A stretch of 64,000 bases of DNA from Dehalococcoidia bacterium. GTDB lineage: Bacteria > Chloroflexota > Dehalococcoidia > Lucifugimonadales > UBA1123. The DNA is taken from contig DAOULF010000259.1 in NCBI GenBank assembly GCA_034420555.1, positions 13,444-77,443 of the forward strand. The letters are read 5' to 3'. Of this stretch, positions 4,519-30,797 are shown one piece after another; the stretch's first letter is position 1; each line of letters opens with the position of its first letter. The position numbers and the translations under genes are program-made. The notes under the pieces were generated by a model. It was not told the DNA's origin and did no database searches. It saw nothing but the letters and a program-made list of their open reading frames with translations.

Positions 4519-4622
4519 CGCCGCGACAGCTTAGTTGTGATGGATATCCAGATTCCGACTTATCCCCTCTCCCTCTGGGTGAGGGTAGATAAGCCGCCAT
4601 TTCAAAGATGTTGAACCACTAG
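4515..4622. repeat. CTAG-bounded miniature repeat, family A-long, copy 1 (contains CCCTCTCCC..GGGTGAGGG hairpin)
   Basis: It is roughly 85 percent identical by eye to 18370..18483. Its left CTAG contains the rpoD TAG stop. Its right CTAG contains the stop (4619-4621, minus strand) of the deacetylase gene. Confidence 0.75.
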
Positions 4623-18527: not shown

Positions 18528-20075
18528 ATGAAGTACGACTACATCATCATCGGCGCCGGTTCCGCCGGCGCGATCCTCGCCACACGGCTTACCGAAGACC
18601 CGTCCAAGTCCGTCCTGCTGCTGGAGGCGGGGCCCGATTATGCCGAGATGGAAGATCTGCCGGACGAGGTTCGCTACGGATACGCCACCGCGACGGACAT
18701 TATGACCAGCGACCACAACTGGCAGTTCACCGGGCGCGCAACCGATTCCGCAGAGCCGATGCTGGTCCCCAGGGGCAGGGTCACGGGCGGCTCGTCGGCC
18801 ATCAACGGGCAGATCTTCCTGCGCGGTGTGCCGGAGGACTACGACAACTGGGCCTCCTGGGGCAACGACGAATGGGGATTCGAGGACTGCCTGCCCTACT
18901 TCCGCAAGCTGGAGACGGATACTACCTACTCCGACGACTTCCACGGCACCGACGGGCCGATCATCTGCCACAGGTTCCAGCCCGAGACCTGGCAGGACGC
19001 CTCCAAGGCTTTCTACCAGGCGTGCCTGGATTACGGCTTCGAGGACTGCCCCGACCACAACGACCCCGACTCCACGGGCGTCGGCCCGCTCCCGCTCAAC
19101 AACCCCAACGGCATCAGGTGGAGCACCAACCTGGGCTACCTCAGCCTGTCCAGACATCGCCTAAACCTGACCATCCGCGCCAACTGCACTGTCCACAGGC
19201 TGGAGTTCGACGGCAGCAGGGCGACGGGAGTAGTCGTCGAAAGCGGCGGTGAGGTCTTCACCGTTCAGGGCGACGAGATAATCCTGAGCGCCGGTGCAGT
19301 CGGTTCTCCGCAGATACTCATGCTGTCCGGCGTCGGCCCGTCCGCACACCTGGAAGATATAGGGATTCCGCTCGTCCACGATCTGCCCGGCGTAGGACAA
19401 AACCTGCGCGACCACCCGCTGATCTATGTGACCTGGAGAGCCAAGCCTGAGCACGAATTCGATCTCGACGGCCCCAGGATGCAGTTCGGCCTGCGCTACA
19501 CCGCCACCGGATCCGACCTCCGCAACGACATGATCGTTTACATGAACACGTTCGCGACGGAGCGCGTCAATCGCGGCGGAAACCGCATGGAACCCATCGG
19601 CATAAGGATGATCGTCGCGCTGGATCTCGCGGTCGGCTCCGGCGAGTTGAAGCTGAACTCAGCCGACCCGTCCGATCAGCCAATTCTGGACTACAACTAC
19701 TTCACCGAGGAGTTCGACAGGGAGCGGATGCGCGAGGCCGTCCGAATATGCTCCAGGATGGGCGAACATGAAGCGTGGAGCGACATCATCGAAGAGCGAG
19801 TCGAGCCACCTGAAGAGGTCATGGACTCCGATGACGACCTCGATGAGTGGATGGCGCGCGAGGTGACCACCGGTCACCACATCTCATGCACTAACAAGAT
19901 GGGGCCAGCCGACGATCCCATGGCGGTGGTTGACCAGTACGGTAATGTCCACGGACTCGAAGGTCTGCGCGTGATTGACGCCTCGATAATGCCGGACTGC
20001 GTGAGGGCAAACATCAACGTGACTACCATGATGATCGGGGAGAAGATAGCCGACCTCATCAAGGAGGGCCGCTAA
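18528..20075 (+). CDS. GMC family FAD-dependent oxidoreductase (paralogue 1)
   Basis: It has [24 protein letters not shown] (the FAD ADP-binding fold), [16 protein letters not shown], and the C-terminal [10 protein letters not shown] with IDASIMP. Confidence 0.9.
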
Positions 20076-20076
20076 A

Positions 20077-21597
20077 TTGAAGTACGACTACGTAATCGTC
20101 GGGGCTGGTTCGGCGGGCGCGACGCTGGCCGCGCGGCTGTCGGAAGACCCCGGCCTCTCGGTTCTGCTCCTGGAAGCGGGCCCCGACTACCCGGACTTCG
20201 ACGCCATCCCTGAAGACCTCAAGTACGGCTGGGGAACAGGCGCCGACTTCGTAGTCGAGGATGAACATAACTGGGCGTTCACCGGACGGGCGACACTCAC
20301 AAGGACAGATATGGAAGTGCCTCGCGGAAAGGTCACCGGCGGGACCAGCGCCATCAATGGGCAGGTGTTTCTGAGGCCACTGGTCCACGACTTTGATTAC
20401 TGGACATCGCTCGGTAACGACGAATGGACTTACGAAGATACCCTGCCCTATATGCGCAAGATCGAGACCGACACCGACTTCTCCGACGACTACCACGGCA
20501 CGGACGGCCCGATCATAGTCCGCAGGCACGCGCTCGACTCTCTCCAACCCGAACAGTCCGCCTTCTACCGGGCCTGCCTGGACATGGGCTTCCCGGACGT
20601 GCAAGACCATAACCACCCCGGCGCGACCGGCGTGGGACCGTATCCCCTGAACAATCCCGGCGGCGTGCGCTGGAGTACCGCAATCGGCTACCTGGGCGAG
20701 GCGCGACATCGGCTCAACCTCACGATACGACCGAACTGCTTCACGCGGCGGGTCCTGTTCGATGGCGATACCGCCGTGGGCGTGGAAGTAGAGAGCGGAG
20801 ATGAGGTCTTTGAGGTTTACGGAGACCAGATCGTCCTGAGCGCCGGACCGATTGCGTCGCCCCAACTGCTGATGCTGTCGGGCGTTGGGCCTTCGGAGCA
20901 TCTATCACAGTTCGGCATCCCGACGGTTCACCACTCTCCGGGTGTCGGACAGGGACTCAGAGACCATCCTTGCGTCACCATGCTCTGGAAGGCCCAGGAC
21001 CACGTTCCCGCGCCGCCGCACGAGGTAGGCCCCCAGAAGGTCTCCCTGCGATACACCGCGCCCGGCTCCCACTTCCCTGACGACATGATTACCGTGATGC
21101 GCTTCGGCAAGTGGGACCATGTCCTCGTGATGAGCGTCGGTCTCTATCTGGCCGTTGGAAATGGAAGTTTGAGTCTCCAGTCTGCCGATCCCCACATTCA
21201 GCCGGTTCTGGACTACAACTACCTCGTAGAGGAGTTCGACAGGCAAAGGCTGAGAGACGGCGTCAGGCTGAGCCTGGACATAATCCAAAACCCCGCCTTC
21301 TCGGACATCGCGGGCGAGCTCATCGCGCCCGATCCCGCGGCGTTGCAGTCGGATGACGCCCTGGACGAATGGATGCTCGGCAACGTCAGCACCATGCACC
21401 ACATATCCTGCACCGCAAAGATGGGCCCGGACGACGACCCGATGGCGGTCGTTGACCAGCACGGGCGCGTGAGGGGTGTCAACAATCTCAGGGTGGTTGA
21501 CGGTTCCATACTGCCCGACTGCCCCCGCTCCAACACCAACGTGCCGATTATGATGCTGGCTGAGCGGATCGCGGGCTGGATATTGAGCGGAGAATGA
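20077..21597 (+). CDS. GMC family FAD-dependent oxidoreductase (paralogue 2, TTG start)
   Basis: It shares the motifs of paralogue 1. The TTG start lies 1 nt after the preceding stop and is preceded by AAGGAGGG. Confidence 0.9.
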   Translation: MKYDYVIVGAGSAGATLAARLSEDPGLSVLLLEAGPDYPDFDAIPEDLKYGWGTGADFVVEDEHNWAFTGRATLTRTDMEVPRGKVTGGTSAINGQVFLRPLVHDFDYWTSLGNDEWTYEDTLPYMRKIETDTDFSDDYHGTDGPIIVRRHALDSLQPEQSAFYRACLDMGFPDVQDHNHPGATGVGPYPLNNPGGVRWSTAIGYLGEARHRLNLTIRPNCFTRRVLFDGDTAVGVEVESGDEVFEVYGDQIVLSAGPIASPQLLMLSGVGPSEHLSQFGIPTVHHSPGVGQGLRDHPCVTMLWKAQDHVPAPPHEVGPQKVSLRYTAPGSHFPDDMITVMRFGKWDHVLVMSVGLYLAVGNGSLSLQSADPHIQPVLDYNYLVEEFDRQRLRDGVRLSLDIIQNPAFSDIAGELIAPDPAALQSDDALDEWMLGNVSTMHHISCTAKMGPDDDPMAVVDQHGRVRGVNNLRVVDGSILPDCPRSNTNVPIMMLAERIAGWILSGE

Positions 21598-24020: not shown

Positions 24021-24134
24021 TGTATGTTGAAAATCCCCTCTCCCTCTGGGTGAGGGTGAACTGCAATTCAGTCATTCCCGCGAAAGCGGGAACCCCGAAG
24101 GGCTCGCCGCTCGGCAATCCAGGGGGAGGTGCGG
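24021..24134. repeat. composite repeat: family A hairpin followed by ATTCCC-N8-GGGAA hairpin module
   Basis: CCCCTCTCCCTCTGGGTGAGGGTG is followed by GTCATTCCCGCGAAAGCGGGAACCCCGAAGGGCTCGCCGCTCGGCAATCCAGGGG. The latter stretch of about 57 nt is identical to part of 59482..59538. Confidence 0.75.
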
Positions 24135-24345
24135 TCAAATCCCCGACAGTGAGGACTGTGAGAAAGACCCGCTACCCCCTGAGGTTCCAATCCGCTATCT
24201 CGTATTCTCTCGTAAGATATAGCATCCGAGAAAGGCGATAGCCGTATGCCGAGAAACCCACTATACATACCCTTGAGTTTAGTGGAAGCATCAACTACCT
24301 GGTTGGTGTCAATTAAACAATCCATCGCAATTGGTAGAGCGATAG

Positions 24346-24383
24346 TTCCCTCTCCCTTGAGGGAGAGGGCTAGGGTGAGGGTG
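24346..24383 (+). repeat. family A hairpin repeat
   Basis: The sequence is TTCCCTCTCCC-TTGA-GGGAGAGGG-CTAGGGTGAGGGTG. It overlaps the probable GTG start of the DUF3179 gene. Confidence 0.7.
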
Positions 24384-26003
24384 CCAATCACTCTTGTGTT
24401 GCTTCCAGGTTTAGTCGTCGGATTGACGGCCGCCACTCTTGGCTGTTTTGGAGGACCCTCACTGCCTCCGACGCCAGAGCCTACCCCCGCGCGGGTCTCG
24501 GCGAACGCGGACATGAGCGCAAAGACGACAGCCGCAGCGCCGTCCCCGACCCCAATTCCGACTTCCACACCTGTCCCGGAAGCCACCCAAGCTCCGGATG
24601 CTACTCCTACGGCAGCGACGCCTGATCCTACGCCTACTTCTACCGCTGTTCCGTATGAATCGGAAGCGGCGATGTACGATATGTTCCCAGGATTTACGAT
24701 GTCAATGTCGCAAACGCTCGAAGCGCTGGAACGGATCAAGCAATACGACGACTCTTCGATGATTCCGGTTCTGATAGAGGTTATGCGCTTCATGCCCACC
24801 CAGTCGTCCCGCGACAGCGTTGCGGACGCGCTGAGGGCGCTTACGGGTCAGCCCTTCGAGGGCAACGACTGGGATAAATGGATGGACTGGATGGGAGCGA
24901 ACCTGGACGAGATCGAACCGCCCGAAGGATACCCCGACTGGAAGGCCAGGCTGTATTCTGCCATAGACGAGAGGTTCGCGTACTTCCTGAGACCCGCGCG
25001 AGACTTTTCCAGGATCAGGCTGGAGGAGGTAGTCTGGGGCGGAGTCCGGCCCGACGGCATTCCCGACCTGCGAAGGCCCTCCTTCCTGGAAGCCTCGGAA
25101 GCCGAGTACATGGACCCGGACGACAGGGTATTCGGACTTGAGATAAACGGCGACATCAGGGCCTACCCGCTTAGGGTGGTCAACGCGCACGAGATGGTGA
25201 ATGACTCCGTGGGAGGCGAACCCATCTCGCTAATGTGGTGAACGCTCTGCGGAGCCGGAATCGTGTATTCCGCGAAGATAGACGGACAACCCACCACATT
25301 CGGCACGTCGGGGTTTCTGTATCGCTCCAACAAGCTGATGTACGACCGGAAGACCAACTCGCTTTGGAGTTCCCTGGTTGGGGAGCCTGTCATTGGAGAT
25401 CTGGCTGAGCGAGACGAAATCATCAAGCTCGACTTCTTCCCCGTCGCCCTTACAACCTGGGGGGAGTGGGTCGAGGAGAACCCGGACACCAAGGTGCTGT
25501 CCCTGGATAACGAGTTCTATCCTCCCTACTTCTATGAACCTGAGACCAGTGAAAGGTCCATCTACTACGACTATCGTGTAAGGGCCGACACCATGTTCCC
25601 CGTGTGGAATCGCGACCACACCCTGGAAGCCAAGGACGAGGTGCTCGGTCTGTCAATCGGAGACACCCACAGGGCCTACCCTGTTATGAAACTGCGCGAA
25701 CTGAGGGTTGTCAACGACACGCTGGGCGACAGGAACGTCGTCATCCTGTCATCCGAAATGTCCTCCGACGCAAGGGTATTCGAGCGTGGCGATGAGACCT
25801 TCGCTATCAAGAGTGGCGAAGACATCGAAGGGATTCCGACTTCACTTGTTGATTCCAACGGCGAGACATGGACGGTTGGTAAGACGGGACTCACGAAATC
25901 CGGCGACCAGAGCGCAACTCTGTCCAGGCTGCCCTCATTCGTAGCCTTCTGGTTCGGCTGGTATGCCTTCCACCCCGACACTACCCTGTTCGAGCCCGAA
26001 TAG
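24375..26003 (+). CDS. DUF3179 family lipoprotein with in-frame TGA (25239-25241), candidate selenocysteine codon
   Basis: The two track ORFs (24246..25241 and 25263..26003) share one frame and are separated only by the TGA. Read-through gives a continuous DUF3179 core. It has a lipoprotein signal (MRVPITLVLLPGLVVGLTAATLGC) and a Pro/Thr-rich linker. Confidence 0.6.
25242..25277 (+). promoter_or_regulatory. candidate bacterial SECIS-like hairpin downstream of TGA
   Basis: GGAAU (25257-25261) pairs with AUUCC (25267-25271), plus C25256:G25272, around the apical loop CGUGU. An alternative helix pairs 25248-25253 with 25269-25274. Confidence 0.4.
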
Positions 26004-26138: not shown

Positions 26139-26717
26139 TTAAGGTTCGCGTAGTTCTATCACTCCCGCCGATCCGAGCGCGTCCGGCTTGTCGTCGTCTG
26201 GGCCTGTGGGGGCGCCACGCCGCGCCTTTGCGTTCCACTCCTCTATCTTCACTTTGACGAGCGCTGTCACTCCCAGGTCCGGGGACGGCGGGGCGTTGTA
26301 GTCATGGCCTACCGTCCGGCCCGGAAAGTATCTCTGCACCATCTTGTCGAACAGATCGAACTTCTCATCTTCGTTCGTCACCTCGCGGGCGCTTCCAAAC
26401 AGAGTCACGCTGCGATAGTTGACAGAGTGGTTCATCGCCTTGCGGGAATAGACGAGGCCGTCGGTGAGGGTCACGGTTATGCAGACGGGCGCGCCCGTGG
26501 CGAGATGCTTGAGCGCGCGACTGCGTATCGAGCCGTGAAGGTAGATGAGGTCGGGCGCGTCCGGGTCGTAGTGATAGGTGAACGGGATGACGAAGGGGAC
26601 GTCGTCCTGGATGAAGCCCAGGTGGGCGACCAGGCCCTGGCAGAGTATGTCGGTCGCCTCTTCGGGGACGGCCCTTTCAGGATGATTTCTGATGCGGGTT
26701 CGTTCGGTAAGTTTCAT
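26139..26717 (-). CDS. pyridoxamine 5'-phosphate oxidase family (FMN-binding split barrel) protein
   Basis: MKLTERTRIRNHPERAV..GLVAHLGFIQDDVPFVIPFTYHYD is typical of the PNPOx-like / NimA-like family. Confidence 0.75.
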   Translation of the reverse strand: MKLTERTRIRNHPERAVPEEATDILCQGLVAHLGFIQDDVPFVIPFTYHYDPDAPDLIYLHGSIRSRALKHLATGAPVCITVTLTDGLVYSRKAMNHSVNYRSVTLFGSAREVTNEDEKFDLFDKMVQRYFPGRTVGHDYNAPPSPDLGVTALVKVKIEEWNAKARRGAPTGPDDDKPDALGSAGVIELREP

Positions 26718-26773
26718 CGGCGTATCCTGTGGAAAACAGACGGGATGAGGTTCTCCCCCACCCCGTCGAGTTC

Positions 26774-27847
26774 TTAGTCCGCGGTCACTGGAACTCTTGA
26801 CTTAGCCTTGTCGCCGGCCCACCGCAGCAGGTCTGCGGTCTCGTCCCAGCCCAGGCAGGCGTCGGTAACGGATACGCCATATTCCAGCGTATCGAGAGGC
26901 CCGTCCAGCTTCTGGGAGCCGGGATTGATGTTGGATTCCAGCATACACCCGATGATGTGATCATTGCCCTCGGCGCGCTGGGCCACCACGTCCCTGAAGG
27001 CGACGGGCTGAAGTCGGTGGTCCTTGTTCGAATTGCCGTGCGAGCAATCAACAAGCAAGTCCGTCCTTACGCCGGCATCCCTCAGAAGACCCTGCGCCTC
27101 GGAGACGAATTTCTCCGCGTAGTTCGGTCCTGAACGACCGCCGCGCAGCACCATGTGTCCATGCTCATTGCCACCGGTGTGAATGACCGAGGTCTGGCCA
27201 TAGTGGTCTATGCCCAGAAATGCGTGGGGAGACTCGGCGGCTAACATGGCGTCAACAGCGGTCTGCGGGTTGCCGTCCGTCCCGTTCTTGAAGCCGACTG
27301 GCATCGAAAGGCCGCTCGCCATCTGGCGGTGCGTCTGACTCTCGGTCGTCCGCGCGCCTATCGTCGCCCAGCAAACGAGGTCCGCGAGGTACTGCGGCAC
27401 TATCGGGTCCAGGAATTCGGTGCCTGTGTAAACGCCCATCTCCGTGATGGAGTGCATAAGGTGGCGCGCCACGCGAAGACCCTCGTCAATATCGAACGTG
27501 TCGTCAAGATTCGGGTCGTAGATGAGGCCCTTCCAGCCCACGGTAGTTCTGGGCTTTTCGAAGTACACCCTCATAACGATGAGGAGCTTGTCTTCGAGCT
27601 CCTTGCGCAGCTCCAGGATCCGGCCGGCATAGTCAACCGCGGCCTTCTGGTCGTGAATCGAGCAGGGGCCGACGACCATCATCATGCGGTCGTCCTCGCC
27701 GCTCAGAATTCGTCGAATCTGCTCCCGGCCTTCCAGGACGGTCCTCTCGGCTGCCTGGCTGATCGGTATCTGTCTTACTAACTCCATTGGACTGATAAGC
27801 TGTTCCGTACTCACGACATTGACATCCCTTACTGGCGACTCTTGCAT
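26774..27847 (-). CDS. aroG: 3-deoxy-7-phosphoheptulonate (DAHP) synthase, class I (AroG/F/H type)
   Basis: It has VVGPCSIHD, RVYFEKPRTTVGWKGL and VDCSHGNS. The ATG at 27847 is preceded by GAGGAGAGAAGG. The isozyme (Phe/Tyr/Trp) is not assignable. Confidence 0.9.
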   Translation of the reverse strand: MQESPVRDVNVVSTEQLISPMELVRQIPISQAAERTVLEGREQIRRILSGEDDRMMMVVGPCSIHDQKAAVDYAGRILELRKELEDKLLIVMRVYFEKPRTTVGWKGLIYDPNLDDTFDIDEGLRVARHLMHSITEMGVYTGTEFLDPIVPQYLADLVCWATIGARTTESQTHRQMASGLSMPVGFKNGTDGNPQTAVDAMLAAESPHAFLGIDHYGQTSVIHTGGNEHGHMVLRGGRSGPNYAEKFVSEAQGLLRDAGVRTDLLVDCSHGNSNKDHRLQPVAFRDVVAQRAEGNDHIIGCMLESNINPGSQKLDGPLDTLEYGVSVTDACLGWDETADLLRWAGDKAKSRVPVTAD

Positions 27848-27894
27848 CTGACCTTCTCTCCTCTGGGATTCGTAAAATCCTCTCTCTGACAATC

Positions 27895-27919
27895 AAAAAC
27901 CCCAGTCTGCCGACTGGGG
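27895..27919 (-). terminator. intrinsic terminator in the aroG leader (attenuator)
   Basis: On the minus strand, CCCCAGUC-GGCA-GACUGGGG (an 8-bp GC-rich stem with a 4-nt loop) is followed by UUUUU. It lies 48 nt upstream of the aroG ATG. Confidence 0.6.
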
Positions 27920-27966
27920 TCTGGTTTTCAGCGTCTCGCCTTATTCAGGACTTCGGACAAAACCTC

Positions 27967-28038
27967 TCAGCCGACAGCTTCACAGCCGGTGCGGTAAAAG
28001 TAATATCCAAAATACGTGTTGGCGGTGACTTCAATCAT
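27967..28038 (-). CDS. candidate Tyr/Phe-rich leader peptide (23 aa) of the aroG attenuator
   Basis: My own translation gives MIEVTANTYFGYYFYRTGCEAVG*. Six of seven consecutive codons are Tyr or Phe. The last codons and the stop lie within the antiterminator arm. Confidence 0.55.
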   Translation of the reverse strand: MIEVTANTYFGYYFYRTGCEAVG

Positions 28039-28047
28039 CTTGCGCCC

Positions 28048-28077
28048 AAGATAGCAGTACCAGACAAGCAGTGTCAA
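28048..28077 (-). promoter_or_regulatory. candidate sigma-70 promoter of the aroG leader
   Basis: On the minus strand, TTGACA (28077-28072) is followed by an 18-nt spacer and TATCTT (28053-28048). This implies a very short or absent 5' UTR before the leader ATG at 28038. Confidence 0.3.
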
Positions 28078-28133
28078 ATGTCGGATTGGGAACCCAGGGT
28101 CGTTTTCGTTTTCAAGAAATAGGTCAGTCAATA

Positions 28134-28294
28134 GCCCCCTCTCCCTGAGGGCTCACAAGGGTAGGCAAATGAGCAAATCGACTATGGATGTCAGCGAAAA
28201 GTCCCCTCTCCCCCTGGGCTAACAAGGGTAGGCAAACTTGCAGCCAGCTATGAACACCAATCAACAAACCCCCTCTCCCTGAGGGTGAGGGTGA
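28134..28294 (+). repeat. tandem cluster of three family A-like units (period about 67 bp)
   Basis: Units start at about 28134, 28201 and 28269. The first two share CCCCTCTCCC..GGGCT.ACAAGGGTAGGCAAA. The third reverts to CCCTCTCCCTGAGGGTGAGGGTG. Confidence 0.7.
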
Positions 28295-28379
28295 TTACGC
28301 TGTCTTGAATATACGAACATTGGATAATGAAAAGACCCTGGCGCCGACTAACCCTTCATGTACAACCGCTCCCCTGTCA

Positions 28380-28388
28380 TGCTATAAT
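28380..28388 (+). promoter_or_regulatory. extended -10 promoter-like element TGCTATAAT
   Basis: TGnTATAAT is read directly from the sequence. A weak -35 (TGTACA) lies 18 nt upstream. Its target is unclear. Confidence 0.25.
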
Positions 28389-28709
28389 CCGAACATACAA
28401 ACTAATGGTGGAGCGCAGACCACGATGACTCTGAACCTCGATATACATAAATGTGCAGTTATGCAACCGGAATCTGGGGGAGTGCGAAAAAATTCTCCAA
28501 AGCTAATGCAGGTGATTAACAGGTGGATTTCTGGTGTTCTAATCACCAGTCGCCCTCCTGTTCCCCACCAGTTAAGCTACCTGTTGCCACCTGTCGCTTT
28601 ATAAAACCCGATATATGACCCGATGAATTCATCCACCACCCGCCCGCTGGAAGCATCAAATATCTGGTGCGCGGCTATAAAACGACCGTCGGAATCGGTA
28701 GCGCAACAG

Positions 28710-28735
28710 TCCCCTCTCCCTCTGGGCGAGGGTGG
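28710..28735 (+). repeat. family A hairpin repeat
   Basis: The sequence is TCCCCTCTCCCTCTGGGCGAGGGTGG. Confidence 0.65.
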
Positions 28736-28878
28736 CGAACCACTTTTGTGATGCTACCCCGCCCGCGCCCCATCTGGATAAATATCACCAAATCTGTTAT
28801 TAGTTTAGACAATCGGTTAGCTCCCTCTATTGGGAAGACTCTGAAGATTCACCACTCCGATACGCAGGGAGAACATCT

Positions 28879-29451
28879 ATGCCCATGAATAGGACAATTT
28901 CTCTCAGACAGGTAACGCGCGAGGACGTCTCTCGCATACGCCAATGGCTGGATGACGACGAAGTCGCCGATAGCTGGTTCGGCAGATACTCTTATGGCGA
29001 ACCGGCCCATCTGGGATACCGGCCTCAGGAAATGGAAGAGGCAAGCGACGAAGAGTTCGCGCGAATTCTGGAAGACCCCGATCACCTGACTCTTTCGATA
29101 TACACGGAAGACGGCGATCACATTGGCGAGCTCCACATCACCCTTGAGGAAGCCCTGGGCGACGGTCAGCTGTCAATTCTGATAGGCCGCAAAGATCTGT
29201 GGCACAGGGGCTACGGACGCGCCAGCGTCCATGCCGCCCTGGACACCGCTTTCAACGAGTACGGCCTCTACCGCGTTTGGGTGGACGTTCCTGAGTACAA
29301 TATGCCCGCTCGCGCCCTGTTCGAGGGCGTCGGATTCGTACACGAAGGCACCCTTCGGAAGAGCAGGCCCCACGAGGGCTCCAGGTTTGACTCCGCCGTC
29401 ATGGGAATCCTCGCCGCGGAGTACCAGCAGCAGACAGCCTCGGCTGAGTAG
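28879..29451 (+). CDS. GNAT family N-acetyltransferase
   Basis: It has the GNAT core (LSILIGRKDLWHRGYGRASVHAALDTAF, YRVWVDVPEYNMPARALFEGVGF). AGGGAG lies upstream of the ATG. Confidence 0.8.
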   Translation: MPMNRTISLRQVTREDVSRIRQWLDDDEVADSWFGRYSYGEPAHLGYRPQEMEEASDEEFARILEDPDHLTLSIYTEDGDHIGELHITLEEALGDGQLSILIGRKDLWHRGYGRASVHAALDTAFNEYGLYRVWVDVPEYNMPARALFEGVGFVHEGTLRKSRPHEGSRFDSAVMGILAAEYQQQTASAE

Positions 29452-29471: not shown

Positions 29472-30797
29472 ATGCTGTATGAGTCGGAATCCGGCAACCT
29501 GACGCTTGTCGCGAGCGGAGACACGATGATAACCCGGCGGCTTTCGGTCTTCCGAGAGCCTCGCTTTCTCTCTTTGGTCGAAATCTTCAGGAACGCCGAT
29601 GTCGGTTACACGAACCTCGAGATGCTCATGCACGACTTCGAGCATTCGCCCGGACTGGCCGGGGGCACCTTCACCGCATCCGAGCCGGCCAATCTGAAGG
29701 AGTTGCAGTGGGCCGGCATCAACCTAGTTTCCACCGCGAACAACCACAACTACGACTACGGCGAGCAGGGCGTTCTCACTAACATCAAGCACATCAGGGA
29801 GGCCGAACTCTCATTCGCCGGAACGGGCAGAAACCTGAGCGAAGCGAGAGGCCCCGGCTACCTCGACACTCCGGCAGGCAGGGTCGCCTTGATTTCAGCA
29901 TCCTCCACGTTTCACGATGCGGGCCGCGCAATGGACCAGCGCCCGGACATAAGCGGAAGACCCGGCCTGAATGCCCTGCGACACACGACCGCACACACCG
30001 TTGACAAGCGCGCCTTCGACGCGATGCGAAGGGTCAGCCGCGAACTTGGATTCGAGGCGCGCAACGCCGCCCAGCGCCGGTTCAGGCCCAAGGGCGCCGT
30101 CATGGAGGACAATGACACTCAGATCAACTTCCTGGGGAGGAAGTTCCTGAGGGGAGAAGAATTCTCCACCTCGACGACCCCGAATCGGCGCGACATGGAA
30201 GAGAACCTGAAGTGGATCGAGGACGCCAGGCGGATGGCGGACTGGGTTTTCGTATCCTTCCACTGCCACGAGAACGGCCAAAGCATGGACGACCCCCCTG
30301 AGTTTCTTCAGACTTTCTCGCGCGCCTGTATAGATGCGGGCGCGGACGGCTTCCTGGGACACGGACCGCACGTCACAAGAGGGATTGAAATACACCGCGG
30401 ACGCCCTATCTTCTACAGCCTCGGCAACTTCATCTTCCAGAACGACACGGTGCGCTGGCAGCCCGCCCTGAACTACGAGAGCGTCGGCCTTGGACCGGAC
30501 GCGACCCCGGCGGACTTCTACGACAAGCGCAGCGAGAACGACACCAGGGGATTCGCGGGCGACTCCGTGTACTGGCAGAGCGTGGTCGCCGAATGCAGGT
30601 TCGAAGACCGCAAACTGGACCAGATCACCCTTCATCCCATAGACATGGGGCACGGCAAGCCACGCTCTCAGCGCGGTCGTCCGGTCATCGCCAAGGGTCC
30701 GGTGATGCGAGTCGCGCTCGACAGGACGAGACGTCTTTCCAAGCGCTTCGGCACCGAAGTAGAGATCAAGAACGGCGTAGGCGTAATCAGGGCGTAG
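29472..30797 (+). CDS. CapA family (PGA_cap metallophosphatase-like) protein
   Basis: SGDTMITRR, NLE, NLVSTANNHNYDYGEQG and HCHENG are typical of the CapA/PGA_cap family. Confidence 0.75.
   Translation: MLYESESGNLTLVASGDTMITRRLSVFREPRFLSLVEIFRNADVGYTNLEMLMHDFEHSPGLAGGTFTASEPANLKELQWAGINLVSTANNHNYDYGEQGVLTNIKHIREAELSFAGTGRNLSEARGPGYLDTPAGRVALISASSTFHDAGRAMDQRPDISGRPGLNALRHTTAHTVDKRAFDAMRRVSRELGFEARNAAQRRFRPKGAVMEDNDTQINFLGRKFLRGEEFSTSTTPNRRDMEENLKWIEDARRMADWVFVSFHCHENGQSMDDPPEFLQTFSRACIDAGADGFLGHGPHVTRGIEIHRGRPIFYSLGNFIFQNDTVRWQPALNYESVGLGPDATPADFYDKRSENDTRGFAGDSVYWQSVVAECRFEDRKLDQITLHPIDMGHGKPRSQRGRPVIAKGPVMRVALDRTRRLSKRFGTEVEIKNGVGVIRA

Follow-up and report, generated by a model that had tools for sequence, protein, structure and literature searches.

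A candidate leader-peptide attenuator upstream of a DAHP synthase gene in uncultured Dehalococcoidia

Does a ribosome translating a short leader peptide decide whether aroG, a gene for 3-deoxy-D-arabino-heptulosonate 7-phosphate (DAHP) synthase, is transcribed in a Dehalococcoidia bacterium? The question is raised by a contig stretch of 64,000 nucleotides (hereafter the window), in which aroG is preceded, on the minus strand, by a promoter, a small reading frame crowded with Tyr and Phe codons and an intrinsic terminator. Dehalococcoidia, including those of the SAR202 type, are abundant in marine and sponge communities and almost wholly uncultured, and their gene regulation is known by inference only. 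With a probability of about 0.8, we consider the element to be a ribosome-mediated (leader-peptide) transcription attenuator, which would set DAHP synthase by the charging of tRNA-Tyr and tRNA-Phe; our confidence stops at that level because the mechanism rests on sequence and covariation of the antiterminator is weak. Attenuators of this kind are already known, and the locus brings a new phylum and no new mechanism.

The leader open reading frame (ORF), read on the minus strand like the helices and the terminator, comprises 23 codons and a stop (ATG ATT GAA GTC ACC GCC AAC ACG TAT TTT GGA TAT TAC TTT TAC CGC ACC GGC TGT GAA GCT GTC GGC TGA). An earlier interpretation made from the letters alone, the sequence-only reading, had described this Tyr/Phe-rich frame, and every coordinate that it gave matched (Table 1). 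At least 5 aromatic residues per 7 were found in none of the 826 small ORFs of the window, the leader itself standing outside the count, while a background of 473 kb contained 17 such ORFs among 7282, with 6 aromatics per 7 in 2 of the 7282. It is because such an aromatic density is so rare among small ORFs that the leader ORF is not taken for a chance product.

A TTGACA-18-TATCTT promoter had been claimed just upstream of the leader. It was located there, with a TG extension in addition, and a consensus scan of the minus strand returned it as the sole promoter-like site within 26500-29000, with no further site between the terminator and aroG. The leader ATG follows 9 nt after the end of its -10 hexamer. 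Across the Dehalococcoidia loci compared below, this distance is 9-10 nt, TTGAC lies exactly 39-40 nt upstream of the leader ATG in 13 of 14 loci, and no Shine-Dalgarno (SD) sequence was seen before that ATG. The constant position of TTGAC strengthens the earlier suggestion of a nearly leaderless mRNA: in the window, the message is predicted from promoter spacing to be probably leaderless, or to carry a 5' untranslated region of at most ~3 nt, and the leader peptide would probably be translated from such a leaderless mRNA.

The 156-nt leader folded at -53.3 kcal/mol (z = -3.4 against dinucleotide shuffles). In this minimum-energy fold, helix 1:2 joins the aromatic codons to the end of the ORF and the sequence past its stop; this third classical element, an anti-antiterminator or pause hairpin, had been missed by the sequence-only reading, which had recognised the terminator and the antiterminator. 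Segment 3 has two alternative partners, segment 2 in the antiterminator and segment 4 in the terminator. The intrinsic terminator expected before aroG was recovered by a terminator scan as an 11-pair hairpin (27922..27897) followed by a T-run; the U-run occupies 27899-27895 and its end at 27895 lies 47 nt ahead of the aroG ATG (27847). Antiterminator 2:3 pairs leader positions 62-79 with 117-132 (27977-27960 with 27922-27907) over about 15-16 pairs, with -24.9 kcal/mol as an isolated helix, which is also the basis of the energies in Table 1. It spans the entire 5' terminator arm and becomes the minimum-energy fold once the aromatic codons are masked by a ribosome footprint. The 10-bp alternative helix of 8 Watson-Crick and 2 G-U pairs on which the sequence-only reading had built, CUGUCGGCUG (27977..27968) with CAGUCGGCAG (27916..27907), is present as described, and it proved to be the core of this longer pairing.

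To relate these helices to the position of the ribosome, a footprint of 30 nt was masked during folding, and the state of the 5' terminator arm just before the 3' arm is made was taken as a kinetic proxy, which is an approximation and not a co-transcriptional simulation. Under these constraints, the antiterminator strand was freed by masking at codons 7-17 and buried by masking at the stop codon. The probability that the 5' arm is paired with segment 2 was 0.86-0.93 for A-site positions at codons 7-17, a range that includes all aromatic codons, against 0.52-0.66 for the window and 0.32-0.35 for its relative L001 when the A site was at codons 19-24 or the ribosome was absent. All 18 nt of segment 2 lie under the footprint of a ribosome positioned on the stop codon. 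Mutual exclusivity and footprint geometry are established here, as are the elements themselves and their conservation.

We infer that the leader ORF is translated and that a switch operates in vivo; the constant distance from promoter to leader ATG, which implies a leaderless AUG, and the conserved frame speak for this indirectly. Transcription would start at or within ~3 nt of the leader AUG, and the ribosome would load on the leaderless mRNA. When charged tRNA-Tyr and tRNA-Phe are plentiful, the ribosome would reach the UGA, its footprint would cover segment 2 and segment 3 would pair with segment 4; with the terminator formed, RNA polymerase would be released at the U-run. When either tRNA is scarce, the ribosome would stall in YFGYYFY and melt helix 1:2, and segment 2 would stay free to capture the emerging 5' terminator arm and loop, so that no terminator forms and aroG is transcribed. 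If the leader is not translated at all, helix 1:2 would sequester segment 2 and termination would be the default. The central proposal of the sequence-only reading, in which the antiterminator is freed by stalling and masked by a ribosome that has reached the stop codon, is in keeping with the sequence, comparative and footprint-masking evidence.

Conservation was assessed on 172 loci of AroG relatives, comprising 80 from GTDB genomes, 80 from metagenomes and 12 retrieved by exact look-up of proteins with 64-93% identity. The closest genomic relatives are metagenome-assembled genomes (MAGs) labelled Dehalococcoidia or Chloroflexi, one cluster of which bears the name of the SAR202 cluster. A scan of metagenome contigs with the AroG protein gave, among the matches listed, relatives at no more than 58% identity, with no close leaders but with an SD-led family. 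An aromatic leader followed by a terminator occurs in 23 of the 172 loci (21 by simple scan, L167 and L169 by eye). The AroG of the window belongs to a clade (n = 15: the window, L001, L002 and L161-L172) that is monophyletic in a neighbour-joining (NJ) tree and consists of uncultured Dehalococcoidia MAGs with 64-93% protein identity.

The same leader ORF and terminator, which the sequence-only reading had proposed to look for before aroG orthologues, are present in 15 of 15 clade members. Each has an in-frame leader with 5-7 Tyr, Phe or Trp residues per 8, as exemplified by MNNSFANRYFGYYFYRTGWEAVG, MNQSFASRYFGYYFYRSAHSAVG, MTTASTYGYFGFYFYRGEQAGG, MKFATATFYFWTYAYFSGAHAAD and MRYVTANETYGYYFYFTGCRAVG, and further by MSIATADTRFFAYAYYWRRPLSADPVASIA, MKFATALYFGYYYFTDGISVG, MVISNGSLYFGYYFYFTGNAGGVLVS and MMISSHRFYGYYWLFTGSS, among others. 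The codon run swaps Tyr, Phe and, in some loci, Trp, yet remains aromatic (FYFWTYAYF, RFFAYAYYW, TYGYYFYF). The N- and C-terminal residues of the leader drift across the clade, with frame, start and stop retained, and the stop codon falls within segment 2 in all relatives. The terminator was detected by simple scan in 13 of the 15 members and by eye in L167 and L169, where the U-run is interrupted; 143-151 nt separate the leader ATG from the end of the U-run in the 14 loci extracted. Both the aromatic run and the alternative helices are therefore conserved in relatives, the outcome on which the sequence-only reading had made itself depend.

Covariation was analysed on a MAFFT alignment (A1) of the leader-to-terminator stretch from 14 sequences, the window and 13 clade loci. 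In the terminator, 99.4% of cells are paired and 4 pairs are compensatory (for example U-A to C-G in 5 sequences), a covariation score that no shuffle reached. RNAalifold, run without a prior structure, returned the terminator and helix 1:2. For the latter, 79% of cells are paired, 10 pairs differ on both sides, and 0 of 500 shuffles exceeded the covariation score. The Gly codon of the run forms the two best-conserved G-C pairs of helix 1:2 (columns 31-32; 12-13 of 14 sequences), and the motif would read YFGYY because this codon supplies them; we infer that it is kept for the pairing.

The evidence for the antiterminator is of another sort. Its core retains 8-10 of 10 pairs in the 10 closest loci, where several one-sided changes preserve pairing (G-U to G-C, G-U to A-U, U-G to U-A), and the terminator loop keeps G-R-Y-A/G in its 5' half, a constraint for which a plain terminator gives no reason. 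Of the 23 loci with a leader, 19 have an antiterminator duplex of -15 to -25 kcal/mol that no more than 7 of 200 shuffles equal, and in 22 of the 23 the 5' strand of the antiterminator overlaps the stop-codon footprint. Families with divergent sequences, including L002, L003, L078, L099 and L170, have an antiterminator duplex of their own. In L002, L170/L171, L003, L078, L089, L099 and L104, the stop-proximal strand is complementary to the terminator arm of the same locus, at -14 to -22 kcal/mol and with at most 5 of 200 shuffles matching. That divergent lineages each appear to have built such a complementarity is a stronger argument for an antiterminator than covariation.

Several results weigh against attenuation. 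In the MAFFT register, the antiterminator shows 0 pairs with a two-sided change and shuffles equal it, although loop-length gaps misregister two of its pairs there. In a register anchored on the stop codon, pairing within a sequence (9.6 of 10) is close to pairing between sequences (9.46 of 10), and one double change only was found, in L165. The compensatory changes that the sequence-only reading had hoped for are thus seen in the terminator and helix 1:2 and almost nowhere in the antiterminator, and because covariation is nearly absent, the support for the latter comes from conservation, position and shuffle statistics. The distant loci L004, L092 and L117 have weak antiterminators. At equilibrium, the terminator state is still favoured with a stalled ribosome (-39.5 versus -33.1 kcal/mol; probability of the terminator about 0.96), and in the full-length leader of the window this probability stays at about 0.9 under masking, without a switch. 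Since equilibrium favours the terminator in every ribosome state, the switch would have to be kinetic, as in trp. The transcription start, finally, is placed by consensus promoter spacing alone.

Could the upstream ORF (uORF) act on aroG without responding to codon starvation? The nascent YFGYYFY peptide might arrest translation in response to a free effector, in a TnaC-like manner, or the uORF might act through translation or Rho access. A possible constraint at the peptide level is hinted at by the recurrence of YFGY, both in aroG leaders of other Dehalococcoidia in which no intrinsic terminator is visible (L009/L010/L012/L081/L085) and in the distant SD-led family (L089 FCFGYYFYF, L099 FYFGYYYFY). 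Within the window clade, however, the run varies freely while staying aromatic, as codon counting would explain more readily than a specific arrest peptide; helix 1:2, with its G-C pairs, accounts for the conserved Gly codon, and the very place that attenuation requires for a terminator is taken by a canonical one with compensatory changes. We consider regulation of this type unlikely. There is even less reason to expect that termination is controlled in trans by a T-box-like tRNA sensor, a riboswitch or an RNA-binding protein of the TRAP/PyrR type, although terminator/antiterminator pairs are common to all such systems and aromatic genes of Firmicutes use T-boxes and TRAP. No Rfam family matched anywhere in the 64-kb window at gathering thresholds, and relaxing the search to E values up to 10 across 27700-28500 gave three chance-level hits to unrelated families and no T-box, riboswitch or known leader. 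The leader, only 144 nt long, is without a specifier loop or T-box architecture, and a trans-acting factor would leave the conserved in-frame aromatic ORF and the placement of its stop codon unexplained; its involvement seems very improbable.

Much the same low standing is given to an ordinary terminator or insulator lying beside a chance ORF, the aromatic frame then being a by-product of an AU-rich structured region. Terminator-like hairpins are indeed common in the 2.5-kb stretch around it (7 found versus 1.9 expected), the hairpin also scores as a terminator, more weakly, on the plus strand, and the aromatic codons lie in a conserved helix, so that nucleotide conservation alone would keep them. 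Yet the leader's closest upstream neighbour, a gene for a GNAT-type acetyltransferase (28879-29451), is divergent, and the hairpin does not stand at the end of any minus-strand gene of the window. In the 12 fetched loci, the upstream neighbours vary (transposases, Uma2, ferrochelatase, a cadherin-repeat protein, enoyl-CoA hydratase, a peptidase, an FGE-sulfatase and others) while promoter, ORF and terminator stay with aroG. Because the upstream genes differ in almost every locus, the promoter-ORF-terminator unit is assigned to aroG, and the hairpin is not the terminator of an unrelated upstream RNA, an outcome that would have undone the sequence-only reading. The frame, a start at a fixed distance from TTGACA and a stop inside segment 2 are kept in all relatives, and an aromatic density of this order is reached by about 0.03-0.2% of background small ORFs. 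The comparison has largely refuted a chance ORF next to a plain terminator.

The downstream gene was confirmed as an aroG-type DAHP synthase gene, the product being assigned to type I-alpha by TIGR00034 (478 bits, cutoff 173) and matching NF009395 (502 bits); it scores below the cutoffs of the isozyme-specific AroG and AroH models. Its best solved relative is the Tyr-sensitive AroF from E. coli (6agl; 397 bits over residues 1-343), versus 373 bits for the structure of the Phe-sensitive AroG. At residues about 207-214 ('PHAFLGID'), the window AroG has a Gly in 'AFLGI' where the wild-type enzyme from N. meningitidis has a Ser (5d02, 'FLSV'). Gly is also found at this position in the Tyr-sensitive E. 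coli AroF and in the 4hso chain, which we take to be the S213G variant of the N. meningitidis enzyme. Work on yeast Aro3/Aro4 and on N. meningitidis S213G reportedly associates Gly at this site with Tyr sensitivity. The residue suggests that the window AroG is under Tyr feedback inhibition, in line with its Tyr-rich leader. As a second terminator-like hairpin follows its stop codon, aroG looks monocistronic in the window.

Table 1. Features of the aroG leader region in the window, in the order of the minus strand; energies are those of isolated helices
Feature	Position	Strand	Remarks
Sigma-70-type promoter	28077..28048	-	TTGACA (28077-28072), 18-nt spacer, TG-extended TATCTT (28053-28048); 10/12 consensus matches
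Leader ORF, 23 codons + TGA, MIEVTANTYFGYYFYRTGCEAVG	28038..27967	-	Direct reading; in-frame orthologues in L001, L002, L161-L172
Helix 1:2 (anti-antiterminator/pause hairpin)	28018..27946	-	Leader positions 21-55 with 60-93; -25.2 kcal/mol
Regulatory codon run, codons 9-15, Y-F-G-Y-Y-F-Y	28014..27994	-	TAT TTT GGA TAT TAC TTT TAC; 4 Tyr, 2 Phe, 1 Gly
Segment 2, antiterminator 5' strand, CUGUCGGCUGAGAGGUUU	27977..27960	-	Last three leader codons, UGA stop, 7 nt beyond
Segment 3, AGACCCCAGUCGGCAG	27922..27907	-	5' terminator arm, loop, first base of 3' arm
Intrinsic terminator, helix 3:4, AGACCCCAGUC-GGCA-GACUGGGGUUU	27922..27895	-	Hairpin overlaps start of UUUUU; -19.1 kcal/mol
Putative Shine-Dalgarno tract of aroG, purine-rich, AGAGGAGAGAAGG	27864..27852	-	From direct reading
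aroG, type I-alpha DAHP synthase (AroF/G/H family), 357 aa	27847..26774	-	TIGR00034 and NF009395 matches
Terminator-like hairpin right after aroG stop	26767..26739	-	12 pairs, 8 G-C, then TGTTTTCC

Among known systems, the closest in function is found in Corynebacterium glutamicum, where the aroR leader (Phe-Tyr-Phe) attenuates aroF, a DAHP synthase gene, and where a ribosome stalled for want of charged tRNA reportedly increases read-through, only Phe limitation being effective (Neshat et al. 2014, J Biotechnol 190:55). The claim that attenuation of DAHP synthase was unreported is therefore too strong as a general statement, and holds for this kind of organism within our literature searches. 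Both systems place a short Phe/Tyr leader peptide directly upstream of a DAHP synthase gene; the run of the window is much longer and dominated by Tyr, with 6 of 7 codons against 3 in aroR. C. glutamicum belongs to the Actinomycetota and the window to the Chloroflexota (Dehalococcoidia), and the likeness to aroR-aroF is one of functional analogy only. The C. glutamicum attenuators of that study are said to be leaderless transcripts. Leaderless leader peptides are otherwise documented in Actinobacteria for trpL, leuL and ilvL of Streptomyces lividans and for the ilvB leader of C. diphtheriae. There, as is predicted for the window, the leader ORF stands at the transcription start, and a hairpin and a U-run come after it; those cases concern other amino acids and other operons and have mapped transcription starts, whereas the start in the window comes from promoter spacing.

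With pheL-pheA and trpL-trpE from E. coli, the window shares the four-segment logic, with regulatory codons in segment 1, helices 1:2, 2:3 and 3:4, and masking of segment 2 by the ribosome at the stop codon. It differs in that the common entry step of the pathway is regulated rather than a terminal branch, that Tyr and Phe codons are mixed (with Trp in some relatives), and that the leader is predicted to be leaderless and not SD-led. No covariance-model match to the amino-acid leader models of Rfam (Phe_leader, Trp_leader, His_leader, Leu_leader, Thr_leader) or to the T-box was obtained at gathering score in the 64-kb window. Full-text literature searches combining Chloroflexi or Dehalococcoidia with leader-peptide attenuation returned no description, although a 2010 survey (Lopatovskaya et al.) could hold one.

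Outside the window clade, the SD-led group comprises L015 (a Deltaproteobacteria MAG), L078 (Desulfococcaceae) and the metagenome loci L089, L092, L099, L104 and L117, with L137, which ends at its contig end, as an additional member. These leaders lack TTGACA at -39 and are preceded by an AAGGA Shine-Dalgarno sequence 8-10 nt upstream of the start, and their runs include GGYFWFWYYFY besides those of L089 and L099 given above. Like the window, these Desulfobacterota-like leaders combine an aromatic run, a stop-proximal strand complementary to the 5' arm of the terminator and an intrinsic terminator; their AroG proteins adjoin the window clade in the NJ tree, and their primary sequences are unlike that of the window. 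In L078, L099 and L104, two terminators, each a hairpin with a U-run, stand in tandem between the leader ORF and aroG.

Other arrangements were seen in more distant loci. In another Dehalococcoidia AroG clade (L009, L010, L012, L081, L085 and L086), the gene upstream ends like an AroH-type chorismate mutase (...HAYLNDAAKLRPDLS and stop), and a conserved, aromatic-rich uORF of ~45 codons, ending in ...YFGY.YT.GLFT.G.SYRS and a stop, lies ~100-300 nt upstream of aroG. No hairpin with a U-run was visible in the uORF region of these six loci, and this uORF may be a terminator-less cousin of the attenuator, based on Rho or on translation. Before aroG, L016 and L023 share the end of a short reading frame (...YRW[FT]YICRRRA and stop), and L005 and L014 share another (...LFT....SAS.SY[SR] and stop), in both cases without an obvious intrinsic terminator. 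The aromatic small ORFs of L033 and L122 were excluded, having no terminator downstream and presumably being C-terminal ends of the upstream gene (shared ...KIWE..).

The chances are about even that classical ribosome-mediated attenuation is recognised here for the first time in Chloroflexota and that the locus is the founder of an uncatalogued RNA family that travels with one AroG lineage across phyla. If so, the 'YFGYY' leader family would comprise leaderless members in Dehalococcoidia, SD-led members in Desulfobacterota and, in other Dehalococcoidia, a uORF variant that has no terminator. Transcription and translation would then be tightly coupled on leaderless mRNAs in uncultured marine and sponge-associated bacteria, and the shikimate entry step would be gated by the charging of Tyr/Phe(/Trp)-tRNA and not by a repressor. 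Control of DAHP synthase by a leader peptide, hitherto studied in C. glutamicum alone, would extend to other phyla. For Dehalococcoidia, the candidate attenuator is a concrete, testable regulatory element: it predicts a terminated transcript of ~144 nt, detectable in metatranscriptomes, and about two dozen sequences are now available toward an Rfam-style family for the annotation of MAGs.

Around aroG, the upstream side is variable in L161-L172, often with transposase fragments, and many of these loci keep the downstream genes of the window, a Pyridox_ox_2 gene (26139-26717) and paired DUF3179 genes (24246-26003). An ORF on the plus strand (29472-30797, 441 aa) matches the lasso-peptide Trp epimerase model MslH (E = 2.7e-100, 336 bits versus a cutoff of 700); its product is probably a relative of the CapA/PGA type, unlinked to the leader in other genomes. 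The leader ORF was considered as the precursor of a ribosomally synthesized and post-translationally modified peptide, given this MslH/CapA-like gene 1.4 kb off on the other strand, and this was rejected, the neighbour not being conserved beside the leader in relatives.

A dispersed short repeat with an imperfectly palindromic core, CCCTCTCCCTGAGGG, has 10 matches in the window versus 0.11 expected, at sites including 28118-28290 (three copies with 67-nt spacing), 28693-28727, 4565-4585, 24036-24056 and 24355-24369. The tandem trio at 28118-28290 lies directly upstream of the leader promoter. The repeat resembles repetitive extragenic palindromic sequences or miniature inverted-repeat transposable elements. 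Two tandem paralogous ORFs (515 and 506 aa) occupy 18528-21597 of the plus strand and both start with MKYDY(I/V)I(I/V)GAGSAG; judged by this motif, their N-terminus looks like that of GMC oxidoreductases. A GMC-oxidoreductase gene also lies near aroG in the relative L165.

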